38,390 nucleotides of DNA from Bacteroidia bacterium (GTDB taxonomy: Bacteria; Bacteroidota; Bacteroidia; Flavobacteriales; Flavobacteriaceae): positions 1 to 38,390 of the forward strand of contig JAUIAA010000001.1 in assembly GCA_030425715.1 (NCBI GenBank). The letters are read 5' to 3'. The translations under genes and the position numbers were made by a program. The notes beneath the pieces are model-generated. The model was not told the origin of the DNA. It searched no databases and saw only the letters and a program-made list of their open reading frames with translations. This document shows, in pieces, positions 1-28,665 of this stretch; the stretch's first letter is position 1; each line of letters begins with the position of its first letter.

Positions 1-2
1 GT

Positions 3-126
3 AACAATGCCTATAATTTATTGCGGCTTAAAGCTAAAACTGAAAGTAACTGAATATTAAAAAGTAAAAGCAGTTGGGGAAAAATAGAGCTTTTTTATCC
101 ACAACAAAATCATAGCCTAAAACGTT
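3..126 (+). repeat. attC-like intergenic repeat, subfamily A copy 1 (Flavo-1-like element)
   Basis: AAC at 3-5 to GTT at 124-126; imperfect inverted arms CTATAATTTATTGCGG / CCACAACAAAATCATAG; highly similar to 706-830. Confidence 0.85.
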
Positions 127-152
127 GTGTAACATTATTTGAAATTTGATAA

Positions 153-677
153 ATGAGAAACTTTATTGCATTTTTAATGTTTTTTTTTGTAATTATTAGT
201 TGCTCTTCGAGTAAACAAATACTAACAAATTCAGATAAAATTGAGAACAAGAAAATCATCTTTATTTTTGAAAGGAATAATGATTTTATTCCACTAGAAA
301 AAAAAGGAGACCATATTGGAAACTCAAAAACACCGACTAACAGTAGGGTATTTGAGAAAACAATTATAGATATTGCAAATGAAACAAATTTGGATTTAAT
401 TTATCAAGAACAATACGTATTTCCATCCGATTCTGTTATTCCAATAATAGTTTCAATTGATAAAATTGAATGGGAATGGAGCACCTTTTCGGCAGTTATG
501 AACACATCTTTAATATATAAATCACCCTTAGATACAATAAAAATAACTGGTTCAAACAGAAATTATTTGTTTGGAACTAAAAAAAGAAACCTATATCAAT
601 CTATGAAAAATGGAAACTACTTATTTTTAACTTTTATGCAAAATAAGCAATCTAATTATTCAATATCAGAAGAATGA
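153..677 (+). CDS. Hypothetical lipoprotein (cassette 1 cargo)
   Basis: 174 aa; hydrophobic N-terminus with lipobox-like IISC; bounded by repeats. Confidence 0.75.
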   Translation: MRNFIAFLMFFFVIISCSSSKQILTNSDKIENKKIIFIFERNNDFIPLEKKGDHIGNSKTPTNSRVFEKTIIDIANETNLDLIYQEQYVFPSDSVIPIIVSIDKIEWEWSTFSAVMNTSLIYKSPLDTIKITGSNRNYLFGTKKRNLYQSMKNGNYLFLTFMQNKQSNYSISEE

Positions 678-705
678 AAAAATCAAAAAATATATAACGT
701 TACAC

Positions 706-830
706 AACAATGCCTATAATTTATTGTGGTTTTTGTAATAAATTTGAAGTAACTGAATATTAAAAAATAAGAGCAGTTGGGGAAAAATAGAGCTTTTTTA
801 TCCACAACAAAATCATAGCCTAAAAACGTT
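706..830 (+). repeat. attC-like intergenic repeat, subfamily A copy 2
   Basis: AAC 706-708 to GTT 828-830; arms 714-729 and 802-818; shares AACAATGCCTATAATTTATTG and GCAGTTGGGGAAAAATAGAGC...CCACAACAAAATCATAGCCTAAAA with copy 1. Confidence 0.88.
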
Positions 831-855
831 GGCGGTAATTAAGCAAAATGAAACA

Positions 856-1917
856 ATGAAACAACTACACCTTGCATTAATCACAATATTGGCGTTATCA
901 TTAAGTTCTTGTGTTCAGCATCAAGAGAAGGAATTGAAAGATTCTAAAGAAACCTTTGGTCCCAGAATTATTGCAATTAATTATGATAGTTTATATCATT
1001 TGGAAGAACCGCCAGCTTACGAGCCTTTTCCAATGTATGGAGCTTTTTTATTTGGAGTAGCAACCCAAAACGTACCAATGGTATATGACACAAAACTCTC
1101 TCTTCCTGAAAACATCAAAAAATCAACAGATGTTATTTATAAAGAAACTGATGGATTATCACTCGGTTTGGATATATACTCAAATAAAACTGATAAATCA
1201 TCGAACCCACTAATACTAATAATTCATGGTGGTTATTGGAAAGCAGGTGATAAAGGAGAGTTCTATACGCAGCGTGCTATAGAATTTGTTGAAATGGGTT
1301 ACACCGTTGCATCAATAAATTATCGGTTATCAACAAATCACAAATTTCCAGCCAACATCGAAGACTTAAGAGATGGCATTTTATTCTTAGTCGAACATGC
1401 AGAGGAGTATAATATAGATGCTAGTCAAATTATGACTTATGGCATATCTGCTGGTGGTCATCTAGCGGCTTTTATAGCACTAGCTGCTAACTCTGATAGA
1501 GAATATGTAAAGGGTTTAAATCCATCTTCATTTAAAGGCGCAATTTCATTGTATGGAATACATGATATGAGTTTGACTATTCAAAGAGAGCATCCCTTTA
1601 CTGAATTATATATTGGAACATCTTATGATTTAGACACTACCAATTATATTGATGCTTCAACAACCCAACATGTAGACCAAAATGACCCACCGATTTTATT
1701 AATACATGGTTCGCTTGATGGTTCTGTATCTGTAAAAAATTCTGATAATTTAGCACAAGTACTAGAATCAAAAAAAGTCCCCTATGTCTATGACAGAATT
1801 GAAGGATGGCCTCATGTGATGGATTTTTTCTCGCCAATTGGAGAAAGAACACTCTGGCAAATGCATGATTTTCTTCAAGAATATATGCCTTCCGAAGAAT
1901 TAAAAAATAAAAAATGA
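856..1917 (+). CDS. Alpha/beta-hydrolase (esterase/lipase, HSL/BD-FAE-like) lipoprotein (cassette 2 cargo)
   Basis: HGGYW oxyanion motif, GISAGG nucleophile elbow, HGSLD and C-terminal His; lipobox LSSC. Start moved to ATG 856 because TTG 829 lies inside the repeat. Confidence 0.88.
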   Translation: MKQLHLALITILALSLSSCVQHQEKELKDSKETFGPRIIAINYDSLYHLEEPPAYEPFPMYGAFLFGVATQNVPMVYDTKLSLPENIKKSTDVIYKETDGLSLGLDIYSNKTDKSSNPLILIIHGGYWKAGDKGEFYTQRAIEFVEMGYTVASINYRLSTNHKFPANIEDLRDGILFLVEHAEEYNIDASQIMTYGISAGGHLAAFIALAANSDREYVKGLNPSSFKGAISLYGIHDMSLTIQREHPFTELYIGTSYDLDTTNYIDASTTQHVDQNDPPILLIHGSLDGSVSVKNSDNLAQVLESKKVPYVYDRIEGWPHVMDFFSPIGERTLWQMHDFLQEYMPSEELKNKK

Positions 1918-1929
1918 ATAACTACCGCC

Positions 1930-2054
1930 AACAACGTGTATAATTCATTGCTGTTTATAGCCTACTTACGAAAGTCCTCGCGGACTTTCTATCTGTGATT
2001 TATTTGCTAACTTTAGTGCTTAAACCACGTAACGAAATCATACACAAACACGTT
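1930..2054 (+). repeat. attC-like intergenic repeat, subfamily B copy 1
   Basis: AAC 1930-1932 to GTT 2052-2054; arms TGTATAATTCATTGC / GTAACGAAATCATACA; internal perfect hairpin GAAAGTCC-tcgc-GGACTTTC at 1970-1989. Confidence 0.85.
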
Positions 2055-2091
2055 CTATGACAAAACATTTTAAAGCTTCTACCTTAAACGA

Positions 2092-2667
2092 ATGAAAGAA
2101 CTATTAACCTACGTAAATCAAATTAGTCCTATTAAGGAAGTTACATTTAAGGAATTGAAAAAACGCTTTAAACCTTTACAACTTAATAAAAACGATTTTT
2201 TTGTCAGAGAAAGTGAATATGCACAACAAATAGGATTCTTAAAAAAAGGAATAATTAGAGCATTTTTTGTAAATCAAGAAGGAAAAGAATATACCAAACA
2301 ATTTTTTGTAGGTTCTTCCATAATTGGTGCTTACAATTCTTTACTAACAAAACAACCAAACAAGATAGCACAACAAGCCCTAACTGATTGTGAAATTCTT
2401 GTTGCCGATTATAGAGAAATGGAAAATCTCTATACTAAATTTCACGATTTAGAAAGATTGGGTAGAAAAATTGCCGAATTTTATTTTTTAGAAAAAGAAC
2501 AAAAAGAAATAGAAATGGCTCTATTAGATGCTGACAAAAGATACTTAATTATGCGACAAAGATTTCCATCAATTGAAACTATGATTCCACAATATTACAT
2601 TGCTTCATATTTAGGCGTATCACCAACTCAATTAAGTCGAATTCGAAAAAAGTTGAAAAATTCCTAA
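2092..2667 (+). CDS. Crp/Fnr family transcriptional regulator
   Basis: cNMP-binding-like N-terminal domain; C-terminal HTH IPQYYIASYLGVSPTQLSRIR. Confidence 0.92.
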   Translation: MKELLTYVNQISPIKEVTFKELKKRFKPLQLNKNDFFVRESEYAQQIGFLKKGIIRAFFVNQEGKEYTKQFFVGSSIIGAYNSLLTKQPNKIAQQALTDCEILVADYREMENLYTKFHDLERLGRKIAEFYFLEKEQKEIEMALLDADKRYLIMRQRFPSIETMIPQYYIASYLGVSPTQLSRIRKKLKNS

Positions 2668-2673
2668 TTTTAA

Positions 2674-2685
2674 TTACATATGTAA
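2674..2685. promoter_or_regulatory. Candidate operator for the adjacent Crp/Fnr regulator
   Basis: Perfect 12-bp palindrome TTACATATGTAA between the regulator and the downstream genes. Confidence 0.45.
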
Positions 2686-2781
2686 ATGTAACAAAACAGA
2701 AAAGCATTTTCCTTTGCATTGAATATTATTTTAAACATCGCCTTTTTTAGAGGCTTGTTTAAATTTTAAAATAGTCATTGT

Positions 2782-3261
2782 ATGAACCGGATTTTATTTT
2801 TTTTATCAATCATAATTTTTTCCATTTTTTTAGGAAGTCAAATTACAGAAGGACTTTTATTAGTTCCATATTGGAAATCGTTATCTAAAACAGAATTTTA
2901 TGAATATTATTCTAAATTTGGTCCACTAATAGGCAGGTTTTATACCATTCTAACTATTATCGCTACATTGATTCCAATAAGTATTAGCGTTTATTGTTTT
3001 TTCAACAAACTTCGTGCTTTAAAATATTCAGCTGTATCATCTTTTTTTGCTTTTCTAATCATTACAATTTTTTATATCTATTTTAAAGGTACGAATCAAC
3101 AATTCTATGGAGCTTCTTTTGATGTAAATCAATTAAAATCTGTATTGAAAGGATGGGAGTTTATGCATTGGTTAAGAGTCCTTTTTGAAATAATTTCTTT
3201 AGTTTTTCTAATCATAACCCTTAATATTCTTGATAAAAAAAAGGAAACAATAGATACTTAA
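2782..3261 (+). CDS. DUF1772/anthrone-oxygenase-like membrane protein
   Basis: 159 aa, four hydrophobic helices, W..MHWLR motif. Confidence 0.7.
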   Translation: MNRILFFLSIIIFSIFLGSQITEGLLLVPYWKSLSKTEFYEYYSKFGPLIGRFYTILTIIATLIPISISVYCFFNKLRALKYSAVSSFFAFLIITIFYIYFKGTNQQFYGASFDVNQLKSVLKGWEFMHWLRVLFEIISLVFLIITLNILDKKKETIDT

Positions 3262-3289
3262 TTTAATACTCAAAAAACATCCAACAACT

Positions 3290-3709
3290 ATGAAACATTT
3301 TTATATGTTATTTTTATTGATTTTAGGTTTTACTACTCATGGGCAATCAATTATAGGGCAATGGGAAACCTTTGATGATGAAACCAAAGAGAAAAAAGCA
3401 GTTATTGAAATTTATGAAAGTAATAACCTTTTTTTTGCGAAAATAGTTAAAAGCTATGTTAGCGAAAAAAATGCTGTTTGTGAAACTTGTAATGGTACTA
3501 GGAAAGGAAAACCAATAATTGGCTTAATCATTATTGAAAATCTAAAAAAAGATGGAGACGAATTTAATGACGGAAATATTATTGACCCAGAAAATGGAAA
3601 AACTTACAAGTGTTATTTAGAATTAATGGATCATAGTAAATTGAAAGTACGGGGTTATCTTGGGCTTTCTCTTTTCGGAAGAACTCAATATTGGCTTAGA
3701 AGGGAATAA
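3290..3709 (+). CDS. DUF2147 domain exported protein
   Basis: Signal peptide, IIGQWET, C..C, G.IIDPENGKTY, LKVRGYLGLSLFGRTQYW. Confidence 0.9.
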   Translation: MKHFYMLFLLILGFTTHGQSIIGQWETFDDETKEKKAVIEIYESNNLFFAKIVKSYVSEKNAVCETCNGTRKGKPIIGLIIIENLKKDGDEFNDGNIIDPENGKTYKCYLELMDHSKLKVRGYLGLSLFGRTQYWLRRE

Positions 3710-3713
3710 TAAC

Positions 3714-3830
3714 GGCATTGAGTATCCTTGTATAATTAATTACTAATACTCACCTACTTACTAAAGTTCGTGATTTATTTGCTAACTTTAGTACTTAAAC
3801 CACGCAACGAATACATAGCCAAGACCCTTG
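3714..3830 (+). repeat. Degenerate attC-like repeat, subfamily B copy 2
   Basis: Shares TGTATAATT, CCTACTTAC and GTGATTTATTTGCTAACTTTAGT.CTTAAACCACG.AACGAA with 1930-2054; central hairpin deleted; AAC and GTT ends mutated. Confidence 0.75.
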
Positions 3831-3850
3831 ACAACAAACTGAAACAGAAT

Positions 3851-3952
3851 ATGGAAACAAAAAGAATAGTACCAAGTATCAGTTCAATAAAATTTGATGT
3901 GCCACATGTGTTATATCCCTACTTCTTTCTTAAAGAGTCTACAAAATGTTAA
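3851..3952 (+). pseudogene. Possible truncated cassette gene remnant (N-terminus reminiscent of VOC/glyoxalase proteins)
   Basis: ATG about 20 bp after the last repeat; METKRIVPSISS followed by an early stop. Confidence 0.3.
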
Positions 3953-4084
3953 GAATAGTTATAAGCTAATTTATAAGCCATATCTGGTTAATTCTAGGTA
4001 GGAACTTTCAGCCCTATATACGAGTCTAAAGCTTAGCCTTGGCACCAATTAAACAGAAAAATATGTATCTTTAAAGAAAAAATC

Positions 4085-4543
4085 ATGGCAATATTCAATT
4101 TAAAAATTAATGGTAAAGAAAAACCAGTAGATGTCGATCCTGCTACTCCTATTCTTTGGGTATTGAGAGATCACCTCAAAATGGTAGGAACCAAATATGG
4201 CTGCGGTATTGCACAATGTGGTGCCTGTACCATTCACCTTGATGGAGTTGCAATACGTTCTTGCACCCTACCCATTCAGGCCGTTGGCAACAAATCTATT
4301 ACTACTATTGAAGGATTATCAGAAAAAGGTGATCACCCAGTTCAACAAGCTTGGTTAGAGCACGATGTACCACAATGTGGGTACTGTCAGGCAGGTCAAA
4401 TGATGAGCGCAGCTTCGTTGTTAAATGAAAATCCAAATCCAAATGATAAAGATATTGATGCCGCTATGCAAGGAAATATTTGCCGTTGTGGTACCTATAT
4501 TAGAATTAAATCTGCTATCAAAACAGCGTCTAAATTAAGCTAA
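4085..4543 (+). CDS. iorA: (2Fe-2S)-binding subunit, isoquinoline 1-oxidoreductase alpha / CoxS family
   Basis: [24 protein letters not shown] and CRCGTY motifs. Confidence 0.93.
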
Positions 4544-4593
4544 TAGTATATGCATCTTTAAGATTACTTTTTTCTTTTTAAAAATTAAATACC

Positions 4594-6861
4594 ATGACTT
4601 TAATAAAAACAACATATAATCGGCGATCATTTTTAAAATCTTCAGCTATTGCAGGTGGAGGCTTATTGATCGGTTTTAATTGGTTTGCTTCTTGTGAGCC
4701 CATTAAAAAGGAAGAAATTCTCAATTTACCTGAAGAGTGGTTTGATATCAATTCTTACCTAAAAATTGGCAATAACGGTGTGGTAACCATCTATTCGCCC
4801 AACCCTGAATTTGGGCAAAATGTAAAAACTTCCATGCCAATGATAGTTGCCGAAGAATTAGATATTGATTGGAAAAATGTTATTGTAGAACAAGCTGCTT
4901 ACAGCCCTGAGCAATTTCCTGGGGCACCATTTGGGCAATTTTCTGGCGGTAGTAGAGGTATTATGATGAAATGGAAACCATTACGTACTGCAGGAGCATC
5001 CGCCAAACATATGCTAAAAAAAGCTGCCGCTAAATCTTGGCAAGTTCCTGTGGAAGAAATAACTACTGCTAAAGGTGTTTTACATCATAAAGTGAGTGGT
5101 AAATCAGCAGGCTATGGCGAGATGGCATCTGCTGCCGCTAAGCTATCTATACCCGAAGAGGTGAAACTAAAAGCACCTAAGGATTATAAAGTCATCGGTC
5201 ATTCAAAAAAAAATGTTGATGGTTTAAAAATTGTTACCGGAAAACCAATGTTTGGTGTGGATTATCAAATGGAAGGCATGTTCATTGCTATGCCTATACA
5301 CCCTCCAGCGTTTGGGATGACTTTGGAGTCTATTGACAATTCCGCAGAAATTGAAAGCATGCCAGGTATTAAAGCTGTATTTGCAGTACAAACCTATGTA
5401 GACAGTTATAAAAAAGCCTATTTTGACACAAATGCATTTCCAGAAATAATTGCCGTGGTAGGCAATTCTACATGGGAGGTTATGCAGGCAAAAAAAGAAA
5501 TTAAAGCCAAATGGAAACCCATAAAAAGTAGTACCATTACAGTGAACCAATTTGGTCGAGATGTTAAGGTGCATACCCCTGCTGGATTAGAAAATACCTC
5601 AAATCACAATCAGCAAATGAATACCTTAATGTCTAATAAAATGAAAGTGGTTCGCAAGGATGGTAATCCTGAAAAAGCTTTCAAGGAGGCGTCTAAAATT
5701 ATTGAAAGAAACTACTCTGCTCCTTATCTGGCACATAACTGTATGGAGCCCATGAACTTTTTTGCTGATGTAAAAGAAAACCAAGCTCATGTAGCAGGAC
5801 CACTTCAAGGACCAGGACTTATTACGCCTACTTTAGCCGCATCTTTAGGAATTCCTGAAGAAAATATCCGTACAGAAATGACCAGAATGGGCGGTGGTTT
5901 TGGTCGTAGAGCATATTCACATTACGTAGTAGAGGCTGCACTAATTTCTCAAAAAGTTAAGGCTCCTATAAAATTGATGTATAGCCGTGAAGACGATATG
6001 ACCAATGGGATTTATCGCCCTACTTATCAAGCAACATATCGAGCTGCTATAGATGAAAACAACAACTTAACAGCCATACATATAAAAGCTGGAGGTATAC
6101 CCGAAAGTCCTTTATTTGCAAATCGTTTTCCAGCAGGTTCTGTGGACCATTATTTGGCAGAAGAATTTGCCATAGATTCAAATATTACAACAGGCGCATT
6201 TCGTGCACCACGCTCTAATTTTATGGCTGGAGCAGAGCAATCTTTTTTAGATGAAATTGCTGAAACTTTAGGTAAAGACCCTATTAATTTTAGGTTAGAT
6301 TTATTAAAACGAGCAAAAGAAAACCCAGTTGGAGAAACCAATGAATATGATGCTGAACGCTATGCAGGTGTATTGAAATTAGTTAAAGAAAAATCTAGTT
6401 GGGGTAATAACGATGCCAACCTCCATAGAGGAGTCTCTGCATATTTTTGTCATAACTCTTATGCCGCACATGTTTTGGATTTGACTATAGTAGATGGTAA
6501 ACCTATTGTTCAAAAAGTTACCTGTGCTATTGACTGCGGTATAGTAATTAACCCAGATGCAGCAACCAATATGGCAGAAGGTGGAATAACCGACGGTATA
6601 GGTAATGCATTGTATGGTGAAATGACTTTTAAAGATGGTATACCTCAAAAAAACAACTTTCACCAATATAAAATGATTCGTATGGGTGACGCCCCAAAAG
6701 AAATTGAAGTACATTTTGTGCAAAATGAAATTGACCCAACCGGATTAGGTGAACCTCCTTTTCCTCCTATTTTTGGAGCTGTTGCCAATGCCATGTATAA
6801 AGCTACTGGCAAAAGAAAATACCATCAACCATTTTTAAAAAGTAATGATATACTTGGATAA
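4594..6861 (+). CDS. iorB: Molybdopterin-binding subunit, isoquinoline 1-oxidoreductase beta / xanthine dehydrogenase family
   Basis: Tat-like RRSFLK signal; AHNCMEP, MGGGFGRR, GAFRAP and GLGEPP motifs; directly follows iorA. Confidence 0.92.
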   Translation: MTLIKTTYNRRSFLKSSAIAGGGLLIGFNWFASCEPIKKEEILNLPEEWFDINSYLKIGNNGVVTIYSPNPEFGQNVKTSMPMIVAEELDIDWKNVIVEQAAYSPEQFPGAPFGQFSGGSRGIMMKWKPLRTAGASAKHMLKKAAAKSWQVPVEEITTAKGVLHHKVSGKSAGYGEMASAAAKLSIPEEVKLKAPKDYKVIGHSKKNVDGLKIVTGKPMFGVDYQMEGMFIAMPIHPPAFGMTLESIDNSAEIESMPGIKAVFAVQTYVDSYKKAYFDTNAFPEIIAVVGNSTWEVMQAKKEIKAKWKPIKSSTITVNQFGRDVKVHTPAGLENTSNHNQQMNTLMSNKMKVVRKDGNPEKAFKEASKIIERNYSAPYLAHNCMEPMNFFADVKENQAHVAGPLQGPGLITPTLAASLGIPEENIRTEMTRMGGGFGRRAYSHYVVEAALISQKVKAPIKLMYSREDDMTNGIYRPTYQATYRAAIDENNNLTAIHIKAGGIPESPLFANRFPAGSVDHYLAEEFAIDSNITTGAFRAPRSNFMAGAEQSFLDEIAETLGKDPINFRLDLLKRAKENPVGETNEYDAERYAGVLKLVKEKSSWGNNDANLHRGVSAYFCHNSYAAHVLDLTIVDGKPIVQKVTCAIDCGIVINPDAATNMAEGGITDGIGNALYGEMTFKDGIPQKNNFHQYKMIRMGDAPKEIEVHFVQNEIDPTGLGEPPFPPIFGAVANAMYKATGKRKYHQPFLKSNDILG

Positions 6862-6971: not shown

Positions 6972-7463
6972 ATGAATAATACATTTTTAAAACAATTCAG
7001 CTATTTATTTTTAATAGGGTGCAGTTTTATACAGGTAGGAGCAAGTTTATTTGCAATAAGTGTAAATGTGTCAACATTGGTAAAAGCACCACCTGCATCA
7101 CTTGCCATGGTTCAAGGATCTTACGTATTCGATCCTAGTGTTTTTTGGGATAATTTTCCAAATTTCATGTTAGTAGTGGTCATCCTTACTCTTATTCTAA
7201 ATTGGAAAACACCACTTCGAAAATGGATAATTTGGGGAAGTGTAGTTTATCTTATTTCTGGCATAATCGCTGTATTTATTCTAGAACCTGTACAAACAGA
7301 ATTTTTATCTTCGGAATATGCGAATATTATAGATCCTGTATTAAAAGAACAAGGTATACTATGGCGTAATGTTAGTTTATGCTTTTTAGGAGTATCCATA
7401 CTTAGTGGACTTGTGTTTATACTTGGATATATAAAGGTTCAATTGATGAAAACCTCAAATTAA
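6972..7463 (+). CDS. Membrane protein, DUF1772-like
   Basis: Four hydrophobic segments; APPASL...FW pattern. Confidence 0.6.
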   Translation: MNNTFLKQFSYLFLIGCSFIQVGASLFAISVNVSTLVKAPPASLAMVQGSYVFDPSVFWDNFPNFMLVVVILTLILNWKTPLRKWIIWGSVVYLISGIIAVFILEPVQTEFLSSEYANIIDPVLKEQGILWRNVSLCFLGVSILSGLVFILGYIKVQLMKTSN

Positions 7464-12053: not shown

Positions 12054-12560
12054 TTAAAAATTTATCAACCAAATGAAAAGTACCAAAACTACAAATATGA
12101 AACTAATTGCTAAATACTTCATAGCGTTTTTTACACTTTTAAATTTTTGATCTACTATTTTACTTTCTATATGTATTTGATGACTTAACTGTAAAAATAA
12201 CTTATTATTGTCTTCACAAACTTCCATTAATTTATTGCTATACGCTTCAATGTTTCCAAATTTACGAACAGCGTCACTAAAGAAAAATACATTTTTATCG
12301 TATTTTAATTCCATTCTTGGGATAAAGCACTGGATAGCAAAATAAATAGAAATCAGTACCGCAAGCAACCAAAGACATACCAAAACAACAAATAAGGTGC
12401 TATTTTCAAAAGACACGTGCAATTGTTCTAACCTATCGAAAAAAAGCCCTAATAATAAGCTATGGAAAGAAAAAATAATACCCGCCTTCAACTCAGAGGC
12501 ACGAATAAGTCTTTCTAGTCTTTCTAATTGCATCCAATAATTATTTGGGTCTGCATTCAT
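12054..12560 (-). CDS. Pycsar effector family (PycTM/DUF5706-like) membrane protein
   Basis: 168 aa, three hydrophobic helices; RASELKAG before TM1, PR after TM2, FFFSD, and KFK before the last TM, as in this family. Confidence 0.75.
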   Translation of the reverse strand: MNADPNNYWMQLERLERLIRASELKAGIIFSFHSLLLGLFFDRLEQLHVSFENSTLFVVLVCLWLLAVLISIYFAIQCFIPRMELKYDKNVFFFSDAVRKFGNIEAYSNKLMEVCEDNNKLFLQLSHQIHIESKIVDQKFKSVKNAMKYLAISFIFVVLVLFIWLINF

Positions 12561-12655
12561 AAAAATTATTCAACTATTTTAATTAGACAGCTAATTATTA
12601 GCAAATTAAACAAGTATTAAATATACAATATTATTTTAATAAGGGTTATTCTAAG

Positions 12656-14617
12656 TTAAACTGGTTTAGAAACTTCTTTATTCTTTATATTATTAACAAA
12701 GTACATACTCATAATACCCTTGTTCTTTACATCTATTTTACCGCGATAAGAACAGTCAAACACATCTTTAATTAAGCTATAGGTGTGTTCAGAAACATTT
12801 ATTTTCATCGGTTCAGAAGAAGACTCCATACGTGCTGCAACGTTTACTGTATCTCCCCAAATATCATAAGCAAATTTCTTAGTTCCTACTACTCCTGCTA
12901 CAACTGGGCCTGTATTAATTCCTATTCTAATATCAAAATTTGCAATCGAATCATCCTCTTTTTCTTTAGCTTCTTTCATAATATGCAAAATTTCAAAAGC
13001 TGCAAGAAGTACATTCTTACCATGATCTTCTTTAGGAAAAGGTAAGCCTCCAGCGCACATATAAGCATCTCCTATGGTTTTTATTTTCTCTAAGCCAAAT
13101 TTTTCCATTACCAAATCAAATTTAGAGAAATAATAATCAACACTTTCCACCAGTTGCTCTGGTGACAAACTAGCCGATTTTTGTGTAAATCCTTTAAAAT
13201 CGGTAAACATTACAGTAACTGCTTCAAATTTTTTGGCTTTTACCTTACCATATTTTTTAAGCTCTAAAGCAGTTTCGTGAGGTAAAATATTTTGCAACAA
13301 ATTCTCCGATCTATTTTTTTCGTCTTCAATAACTGAATTTGTTTTTTGAATATATCTATATCTGCGGTAAGTACCTAATGCCAAAAGCAAGATTAAAATA
13401 GAAATAACACTGGCGGCATATACCAAATATTTTTGTCTAGTTGAAATATTTTGCTGTAATTCAGCTTCTTTTTCTAGTAAACTTATTTGGTCTTGTTTTT
13501 TATCTAATTCAAAATCGAACTGTAAGCCTCGTATCTTATCATCTGTTTCTAAATTAAATAAGGAGTCTTTTTGTTGCACAAATAAAGATTGGTACTTGTA
13601 CGCATTTGCAAAATCTTTTTTCTCTCTAAACAAATGAGACATGCCCCCATATATATCTTTTAATTCTCCAACAACTCCCATTTTTAAAGCTAAATTTTCT
13701 GCTTCTTTATAAGAATTTAATGCTTTTTGAAAATCTTTTTTTTGATACGTGTTTCCTATTGCAATCAAAGATTGCACCATATCCAATTGCTGGTTTTTTT
13801 CTTTAGCAGTTGCGTAAGCCAATTCTAAATACTCTACTGATTTTGAAAAATTGCCTTTTTCATATTCCGTTTCTCCAAGCATTTTAAGGTTATGGGCATA
13901 ATCTGAACCATTTTTATTTAGCGGAAGTGCTTCTTTAAAATACTTTATTGCTTTATCATAATCCTTTTTTTTAGCATAAACTTCACCCATTCCCATTAAA
14001 TAAGTGGAATGAATTTGTACATCCTTTAAATTTGTCAAATAAGGCTCTATTTGACGGAAATATTTTATAGATTGCTCGTAATCACCAATTTCACCATAAA
14101 GTCCAGCAATATTGAGTAGCGCACTACAAATACGAAGGGGTTCCTTTAATTTTAGAGATATATTTAACGATTCTAAATAAAAATCTATGGCTTTGGCATT
14201 GCTGCCTTGGCTGTAATACACTGCTCCTAAATTATTTAACATATTGGCTATACCCAGAGTATCTGGAACACTTTTGTATGCTTCTAAAGACTTACTCCAA
14301 TACTCCAAAACCTTTAAATAATTACCCTGATGATACTCGGCCAGACCCATATTTTTTAAAGCGAGTGCTTCCCCCTTTATATAATTCAATTTATTTGCCA
14401 ATAATAGTGCTTGATGGGAATACTCTAATGAACCATTGATATTCTCTTCTTTTAAGACCTTAGCACTAAGCTCGTTTAAATTGATAATTAAAACCGTATC
14501 TTTTTTGCTATTTTGAATTACACTTTTTAAACTATCTGTCTGGGCATTTAAGTTGGGAATTAGGCACAACAATATTAAATTTAGTACTACCCCAAGAAAG
14601 TCAAATTTTATATTCAT
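12656..14617 (-). CDS. Membrane-anchored class III adenylate/guanylate cyclase with extracytoplasmic TPR domain
   Basis: Signal peptide, TPR-like repeats, one TM, coiled coil; MFTDFKGFT, KIKTIGDAYM, RIGINTG and YDIWGDTVNVAARMES. Confidence 0.93.
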   Translation of the reverse strand: MNIKFDFLGVVLNLILLCLIPNLNAQTDSLKSVIQNSKKDTVLIINLNELSAKVLKEENINGSLEYSHQALLLANKLNYIKGEALALKNMGLAEYHQGNYLKVLEYWSKSLEAYKSVPDTLGIANMLNNLGAVYYSQGSNAKAIDFYLESLNISLKLKEPLRICSALLNIAGLYGEIGDYEQSIKYFRQIEPYLTNLKDVQIHSTYLMGMGEVYAKKKDYDKAIKYFKEALPLNKNGSDYAHNLKMLGETEYEKGNFSKSVEYLELAYATAKEKNQQLDMVQSLIAIGNTYQKKDFQKALNSYKEAENLALKMGVVGELKDIYGGMSHLFREKKDFANAYKYQSLFVQQKDSLFNLETDDKIRGLQFDFELDKKQDQISLLEKEAELQQNISTRQKYLVYAASVISILILLLALGTYRRYRYIQKTNSVIEDEKNRSENLLQNILPHETALELKKYGKVKAKKFEAVTVMFTDFKGFTQKSASLSPEQLVESVDYYFSKFDLVMEKFGLEKIKTIGDAYMCAGGLPFPKEDHGKNVLLAAFEILHIMKEAKEKEDDSIANFDIRIGINTGPVVAGVVGTKKFAYDIWGDTVNVAARMESSSEPMKINVSEHTYSLIKDVFDCSYRGKIDVKNKGIMSMYFVNNIKNKEVSKPV

Positions 14618-28579: not shown

Positions 28580-28665
28580 AACTATCGACTTTAGACCATT
28601 GACCATTGACCATTGACCATTGACCATTGACCATTGACTATTGATTATTGATTATTGACTATTGA
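28580..28665 (+). repeat. Heptamer tandem repeat (GACCATT)6 plus variants
   Basis: Six perfect GACCATT at 28594-28635, then GACTATT, GATTATT x2, GACTATT; preceded by AACTATC and GACTTTA. Confidence 0.95.

Follow-up and report, generated by a model that had tools for sequence, protein, structure and literature searches.

Complementary cassette ends and a Xer-like recombinase point to an integron-like gene-cassette system in the Flavobacteriaceae

The two gene units at the start of the window (the whole stretch of DNA analysed, 38,390 nucleotides from a member of the Flavobacteriaceae) are very probably gene cassettes of a flavobacterial integron-like system, likely moved as circles by a Xer-like recombinase that cuts at GTT. 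They obey a common end rule, have sharp boundaries and lie in a single orientation; related arrays start at an attI-like site, and cassette 2 has moved between genera. In the proposed mechanism, each unit would comprise a gene with self-complementary ends and its downstream repeat, the bottom strand of the excised circle is predicted to fold into a full hairpin, and the Xer-like recombinase would cut this hairpin at GTT. A single strand exchange, replicative resolution and a circular intermediate would follow as in classical integrons, from which these steps are taken, and a promoter within the attI-like site would likewise drive expression of the cassettes.

The window opens contig C3 of a genome of 2.18 Mb that is 71% complete. 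Full repeats number three in the window and one on contig C86, and the source genome also contains several decayed ones. The features of the window array are as follows.

3..126, forward strand: attC-like repeat r0 (AAC...GTT, 124 nt), closing an unassembled upstream cassette; its class was encountered in the source genome only
124..137, forward strand: head of cassette 1, made of GTT, seven cassette-specific bases, the invariant A (+8, position 134) and TTA
153..677, forward strand: cassette 1 gene, 174 aa, with a lipoprotein-like leader as read from the sequence
695..708, forward strand: tail of cassette 1, the reverse complement of the head apart from C698
706..830, forward strand: attC-like repeat r1 (125 nt), 89% identical to r0, the downstream site of cassette 1
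828..841, forward strand: head of cassette 2; copies elsewhere become identical from 824-827
856..1917, forward strand: cassette 2 gene, an alpha/beta-hydrolase (BD-FAE, PF20434, E 2e-49) with a lipoprotein-like leader
1919..1932, forward strand: tail of cassette 2, the reverse complement of the head apart from C1922
1930..2054, forward strand: attC-like repeat r2 (125 nt), of a common class
2052..2065, forward strand: atypical head after r2, with C at +1 and A at +8, preceding a Crp-type gene
3726..3829, forward strand: decayed repeat of the r2 class, its left AAC gone and its GTT replaced by CTT
4038..4050, forward strand: possible decayed cassette head (CTT + 7 + A + TT), recognised by eye, before 2Fe-2S/molybdopterin oxidoreductase genes

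The cassette 1 gene matches no Pfam or NCBIfam family and found only itself among 37 candidate homologues, and the cassette was absent elsewhere in a search of 400 family genomes and a protein search. The cassette 2 gene starts at ATG 856, in a frame open from TTG at 829. A query spanning 120-2060 matched 118 of the 400 family genomes; among the matches listed, nearly all lay on r2, mostly ending at or near its GTT. For the unit after the third repeat (GTT 2052-2054) no partner end was found anywhere in the assembly. A T9SS sorting domain, together with the named relatives of the recombinase described below, indicates the Flavobacteriaceae. On the reverse strand at 12054-14617 the window also has a gene for a TPR-adenylate/guanylate cyclase, after which come genes with a Pycsar-effector domain and an HD domain; the genus has many copies of similar cyclase genes. 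A heptamer tandem repeat of about 10 copies lies at 28581-28664, between purK-like and DUF2797 genes.

The initial annotation had proposed that the two ends of each cassette are cassette-specific reverse complements, and this was confirmed: the head of cassette 1 (124-137) is complementary to its tail (695-708) at 13 of 14 positions, while for cassette 2 the match of 828-840 to 1920-1932 is 12 of 13, rising to 13 of 14 when 841 and 1919 are added (10 of 11 beyond the triplet). The sole mismatch falls at the same spot in both, an A at +8 after GTT (A134, A838) facing a C at -8 before AAC (C698, C1922). The flanks of a single repeat, as had also been claimed, do not match, those of repeat 706-830 pairing at just 1 of 7 positions. 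Both window cassettes score 7/7 at their ends, a level reached by 0.65% of 100,000 random pairings of non-cognate ends from related arrays (at least 6/7: 3.5%). A third case in the source genome is a Fic gene on C86 (GTT at 1025-1027, repeat at 2254; 6/7, or 9/11). This Fic-domain cassette (C86:1025-2377) sits in an attI-like GTT directly 3' of holB, and several decayed repeats lie beyond it, to about position 7170. The Fic stop codon falls inside the downstream repeat, so that a swap of the repeat interior would alter the Fic C-terminus; a single 70% relative among 195 genomes was uninformative as to the cassette's occurrence elsewhere. The class shared by r0, r1 and the C86 repeat (3-126, 706-830; C86:2254-2377) occurs, among 853 sites, in the source genome only, on three different genes, and the r2 class spans 38 genomes. 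Such a private class would fit a local refitting of genes with the genome's own hairpin.

Arrays beside related recombinases follow the same rule. The first set comprised 41 loci (489 kb), 40 of them from family genomes, picked by score and downstream room, and one a GTDB contig; its sites were called by a detector using the repeat interior only. Consecutive repeats agree at 6/7 or better in 220 of 262 pairs, against 13 of 262 for the flanks of one and the same repeat, 5.1% for non-cognate pairs within an array, and 53 for the best of 2000 within-array permutations. The comparison set beforehand, post-GTT bases against the next pre-AAC bases in true and shuffled pairs, thus leaves the rule standing. 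The 42 pairs that break it do so mostly across long gaps (beyond 2.5 kb, 5 of 18 hold), probably because sites there escaped detection or have disappeared. In a second set (40 loci, of which 15 come from genomes already in the first), the rule is obeyed by 261 of the 322 pairs that lie no more than 3 kb apart. By position, the match is about 0.9 at +1 to +6, 0.66-0.70 at +7, near 0 at +8, where the base is A in 261 of 262 cases, and 0.7-0.9 at +9 to +11. Arrays hold up to 20-25 sites per 20 kb, with a dominant repeat length of 120-129 nt (540 of 671). Minimal repeats of 45-69 nt, almost loopless, share arrays with 124-, 187- and 205-nt classes (L016, L048, L052; genomes G019, G171, G136), showing that the repeat interior beyond the arms is apparently dispensable. 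Two loci (L033 and L126, in G127 and G375) contain very short cassette families of 184-247 nt, with many copies within one array.

Across the 41 loci, 297 sites lie on the recombinase strand and 0 on the opposite one (1 in shuffled DNA), and the longest open reading frame is forward in 569 of 596 cassettes. This bears on the idea that the units are shufflon-like segments whose inverted ends are targets of an invertase. Gene bodies bounded by inverted repeats and a tyrosine recombinase adjoining the arrays are what one would expect of a shufflon, but segments in both orientations between shared inverted sites are not what the arrays contain: the inverted part is gene-specific, and units are duplicated and moved, not flipped, with no flipped body in the metagenome contigs examined (from 7 among 20 runs listed). 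We consider this reading highly improbable. We find it scarcely credible that the repeat is itself a small mobile element, a REP-like repeat or an ncRNA, with the end matches reflecting target-site duplication or chance. Repeat classes more than 90% identical across many genera and moving independently of genes would suit such an element; a duplication, however, would be direct and around one repeat, and the observed match is inverted and spans the cassette, same-repeat flanks agreeing in the 13 of 262 cases given above. No direct target-site duplication of the MITE or IS kind is visible at the three window repeats, and positions 1-5000 gave no Rfam match at gathering score and, up to E 5, just two chance miRNA matches. 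The earlier assertion that a simple ncRNA or REP repeat would not produce this pattern is upheld by these results.

The point of crossover follows from the bases on either side of GTT. At -1, 661 of 671 repeats have C and 26 of 29 attI-like sites have A, whereas base +1 travels with the cassette (0.92-0.94 match); as base -1 goes with the site and base +1 with the cassette, the crossover lies inside GTT. The exact bond cut is assumed, by analogy with integrons, to be that between the G and the TT. When the units are joined in silico at GTT and the bottom strand is folded, a check suggested in the initial annotation, both window cassettes give an outer stem of 14 pairs. Folding of the bottom strand is thus predicted, as is a T.G wobble for the +8/-8 A/C pair, which would form on that strand only, the top-strand stem being shorter. 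Predicted energies for the two cassettes are -17.3 and -22.8 kcal/mol for the bottom strand of the circle form, compared with -13.8 and -19.5 kcal/mol for the top strand and -10.1 and -14.3 kcal/mol for the array form. In array form the window repeats fold no more stably than shuffles (bottom strand, z -0.2 to -1.1). The outer stems found in 99% of units in circle form are a partly circular result, because the units were picked for matching ends. Arm mismatches were counted at 597 sites called by a detector that used length only and no complementarity, and those forming G.T on the bottom strand are favoured 1221 to 6. AAC/GTT ends, imperfect inverted arms and a bottom-strand preference, all computational, are thus present. 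A bulge is visible in the arms of r1. The classical boxes RYYYAAC and GTTRRRY are absent: of the bases that follow GTT, +1 alone is a purine, with G, T or C at +2 and mostly C at +3; the window heads read GTTGTGT and GTTGGCG. The spacer is uneven around a TAT pair, with 4 or 6 nt on the left and 7-9 nt on the right.

Movement of the cassettes is seen both between and within genomes. Cassette 2 occurs in another genus (G074) at 98% identity and with different neighbours, and six metagenome runs (X5, X8, X15, X16, X19 and X20) contain it with zero depth over the cassette 1 gene (141-560). Loose ends at 824-827 in metagenome runs show the right arms of four other repeats, and identity between copies of cassette 2 begins at C-GTT wherever the junction is visible. 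In L056, a relative of cassette 2 (92.6%) occupies a bare GTT that follows a chromosomal gene. Cassettes duplicated inside one genome retain the downstream repeat in all 27 families (10 genomes); for pairs with at least 93% body identity it is kept in 116 of 116, and the upstream repeat is shared in 35 of 102. Together with the behaviour of bases -1 and +1 and the 14-pair stem, the 27 families support the claim in the initial annotation that the mobile unit is a gene plus its downstream repeat, with crossover at GTT. Among the joints listed for the contigs of the 7 metagenome runs there is no circle junction; 'skip' joints in run X1 include unknown letters and fit other cassettes flanked by like repeats. 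We infer a circular intermediate by analogy with integrons.

Between genomes the repeat interior behaves differently. Three arrays were searched against the 400 genomes, with up to 30 loci per query and the best 1-2 candidates per genome scored; pairs were kept when each of the two bodies was defined, measured 330 nt or more and had matching ends, and an interior less than 75% alike was counted as swapped. At a body identity of at least 90%, 14 of 20 families swap their interior and 3 keep it throughout. The 34 cross-genome pairs with body identity of at least 88% divide into 23 swapped, 5 intermediate and 6 kept, the last comprising three within a genus and three across genera. Swapped pairs show an identity of 0.96-1.0 over the 13 bases that precede AAC, and are no more alike than chance starting with the second base past AAC and the second base before GTT. 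The left break falls at AAC(A) and the right one at (C)GTT, and left and right arms change together. For 26 of the 35 interiors that were swapped, an unrelated gene has a twin at least 90% identical. Copies of cassette 2 occur with four interiors (40-68% alike), and 23 bases beyond the boundary are the same in them; this may reflect a shared arm class or a hybrid origin. Since one gene body thus carries different interiors in different genomes, there is a second sharp boundary at AAC. By sequence comparison, then, gene bodies and repeat interiors reassort between genomes with a break at AAC, and the same gene likely acquires a different predicted hairpin in other genera through this second swap point.

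These data raise the question whether only the gene body (GTT...AAC, bounded by 14-bp inverted ends of its own) travels, as a panhandle that is inserted between resident linker repeats. The failure of the interior to track the body in 23 of 34 cross-genome pairs and the four interiors of cassette 2 are in its favour. It is contradicted by the 116 of 116 within-genome pairs that retain the downstream repeat when the upstream one is shared in just 35 of 102, and by the 6 of 34 cross-genome pairs, three of them across genera, in which the interior is kept, and we regard it as unlikely. The preferred unit remains the gene with its downstream repeat.

A double strand exchange at the inner-arm edge was rejected because the left spacer changes with the interior, whereas such an exchange would leave it with the body. 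Homologous recombination is unlikely as the general cause, as in 23 of 32 swapped pairs no more than 4-5 bases are shared, against 69% for random unrelated interiors; two swapped pairs, cassette 2 among them, share 23 bases and could be hybrids. We lean, with limited conviction, towards an occasional mirror reaction, in which a top-strand hairpin is cut at its AAC, since this would yield exactly the swap boundaries seen. The enzyme would need a looser choice of strand than IntI, and its most plausible substrate would be single-stranded DNA on its way into a new host. For IntI, cutting of the top-strand hairpin is described as rare (PMC2727003, PMC8946536), the top strand recombining about 1000-fold less well (PMC8946536). 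A donor trace for top-strand excision was found in 1 of 32 cases against 1.16 expected, which is neutral. Duplicates inside one genome are recent (18 of 27 close to 100% identical), and the older ones in mixed arrays number four (95.6-99%), none swapped, so that swapping on transfer and swapping with time are not cleanly separated.

As to the enzyme, the source genome encodes two tyrosine recombinases, XerD on contig C300 and a 408-aa protein at C329:117-1343. Relatives of the latter (E up to 1e-60) were found in 65 of 150 family genomes; named relatives come from Lutimonas, Lutibacter and Urechidicola, and R242, K267, H332, R335, H358 and Y367, the R-K-H-R-H-Y set, are invariant in 83 aligned relatives. 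Arrays follow these relatives in most of the 41 loci. In the source genome the C329 enzyme and the window array (C3) are on different contigs, no contig-end overlap joins them and the first cassette behind the recombinase is without a partner end; the loci of its relatives make it the candidate enzyme for the window array. Directly past its stop codon lies a site ending in GTT (C329:92-90), followed by a gene start and the contig end. In 29 of 41 loci one such motif, conserved up to GTT and variable beyond, stands after the recombinase gene as an attI-like site, which together with the first repeat obeys the end rule in 21 of 30 loci; some of the exceptions reflect sites that were called wrongly. 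An exact TAnnTTTG, given as the Flavobacterium -7 element in PMC7641319, lies within 70 nt of GTT in 13 of 36 attI-like sites, 8 of them at the same distance, against a background of 4%, which hints that the site contains its own promoter. C41:3574-3600 contains a second attI-like site, with a TAnnTTTG box and a proper head, but neither a preceding recombinase nor, on the contig, a partner end. Upstream of the C329 recombinase (C329:1660-2000) there is a tRNA-like gene (Arg by eye), then a unit of about 80 nt in three tandem copies, each repeating one tRNA end.

The C329 enzyme lacks the IntI-specific insertion in the catalytic domain: compared with IntI4 (2A3V), about 42 residues are missing around it (a 21-aa gap versus 63 aa), the motif spacing is 63-64 aa in 88 of 89 relatives versus about 106 in IntI4, and the TIGR02249 score is 175 bits, in two pieces, against a cut-off of 265. 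The integron insertion is described as essential for function, yet not fully conserved in an integron-like subgroup (PMC8138268). In both sequence and fold, the catalytic part is closest to archaeal XerA (5HXY, 4A8E), followed by IntI4. The structure model (pLDDT 84.7) has a confident extra N-terminal domain of 80 aa, of which residues 5-79 align to 2FZ4, 1RIF, 5TNU and 2OCA (Z 6.2-6.9, rmsd 1.6-2.2 over 57-62 residues, 10-19% identity). The N-terminal domain of T4 UvsW is described as HARP (PMC4666394), and we predict a HARP-like domain from this modest fold-level match, which may read the hairpin and so replace the missing IntI insertion. A model of the domain folded alone and without an alignment (pLDDT 46) was discarded, and a search of the ESM Atlas gave unnamed matches under 0.9.

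Set beside known systems, the arrays most resemble sedentary chromosomal integrons (Vibrio cholerae VCR; IntI4 2A3V), with which they share promoterless single-gene cassettes in one orientation, AAC/GTT triplets, crossover at GTT, bottom-strand bias, an attI beside the recombinase, repeats of about 124 nt and ends that pair fully only in circle form. Unlike these, the enzyme is without the roughly 42 aa that include the IntI insertion and has the extra N-terminal domain; six or seven free complementary bases take the place of RRRY, with an invariant A/C at +8/-8; the spacer is uneven; and repeat interiors reassort between genomes. The intI gene is usually divergent from its array, whereas the C329-type gene is transcribed towards it. 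In integrons, cassette end pairing has been described as extendable to 9-11 nt (PMC2727003). Could this nevertheless be an ordinary integron, with classical attC sites served by a classical IntI absent from the incomplete assembly? The AAC...GTT boundaries, bottom-strand bias and length of 120-129 nt, as in Vibrio-type arrays, and the rank of 2A3V among the top structural matches speak for it. The gene in front of the arrays in the 41 loci, however, is the insertion-less enzyme and not IntI, the profile score and motif spacing given above fall short of the TIGR02249 cut-off and of the IntI4 spacing, and the ends depart from GTTRRRY, so that we consider this improbable. The integron-cassette reading of the initial annotation holds for the cassette unit and the GTT crossover; it fails on the enzyme, which is not a classical IntI, and on the interior, which leaves the gene between genomes. 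The system works like a sedentary integron, and we do not file it as a classical one because the IntI insertion and RRRY boxes were looked for and found lacking.

Further likenesses are partial. As in CALIN/attG arrangements, the window array has no recombinase on its own contig, and the cassette 2 relative at L056 and the C86 Fic cassette stand at a bare GTT behind chromosomal genes; unlike in those, the window sites are non-classical, and the contig starts at a repeat, so that it may yet link to a recombinase contig. With archaeal XerA and bacterial XerCD the enzyme shares a compact catalytic domain without the IntI insertion, but it has the additional N-terminal domain, is separate from the genome's own XerD and is accompanied by cassette arrays whose sites lack a shared spacer. 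The likeness to HARP-like domains (T4 UvsW N-terminus, N-terminal part of archaeal XPB) is at fold level only. A more far-reaching reading would be a separately evolved Bacteroidota analogue of integrons run by a Xer-HARP fusion that would cut at both AAC and GTT, with bodies and hairpins as independent modules and refitting on entry into a new genus, a proposal that we advance tentatively and that falls somewhat short of probable.

On plasmids, repeat r2 was matched in 2 of 72,556 records, H1 and H2 (Tenacibaculum), both unannotated. On Myroides plasmid NZ_CP102755.1 (7944-10597), aadS and blaMYO-1 lie between repeats of the window type, with ends at 7/7 and 5/7. In the region 4028-6100 of Acinetobacter plasmid NZ_CP041297.1, the gene labelled 'xerD' in front of tet(X3) encodes a relative of the C329 recombinase (41% identity across residues 158-385). 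After it come a -7-like box and a GTT head whose +8 base is A, and past the gene a left arm resembling that of a repeat; the ends here reach just 4/7. Two exact patterns in viral contigs and one blastn in phages gave no phage copy of the window's own repeats, the sequences to which this search was confined.

A full-text search, outside which most subscription papers lie, as do supplements where loci could be tabulated, found no published account of this system or of interior swapping. IntegronFinder 2.0 is reported to find almost nothing in Bacteroidetes, with one complete integron in Bacteroidetes proper, in Salinibacter (PMC9024848). What is new here is that duplicates within a genome keep their downstream repeat, yet between genomes most gene-body families (14 of 20) carry unrelated interiors. 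If active, this would be a large gene-trading system missed by standard integron surveys, with relatives of its recombinase in 65 of 150 family genomes, and the IntI insertion would not be required for hairpin-site cassette shuffling. Sites of its type flank aadS and blaMYO-1 on the Myroides plasmid, and the gene before tet(X3) in Acinetobacter, labelled just xerD, encodes a related recombinase. Reassortment of gene and hairpin at an exact AAC bears on how cassettes obtain their attC and why arrays are homogeneous, questions raised as open in PMC12614218; should the AAC- and GTT-cutting analogue prove true, it would offer cassettes a natural route to acquire or change their attC sites.
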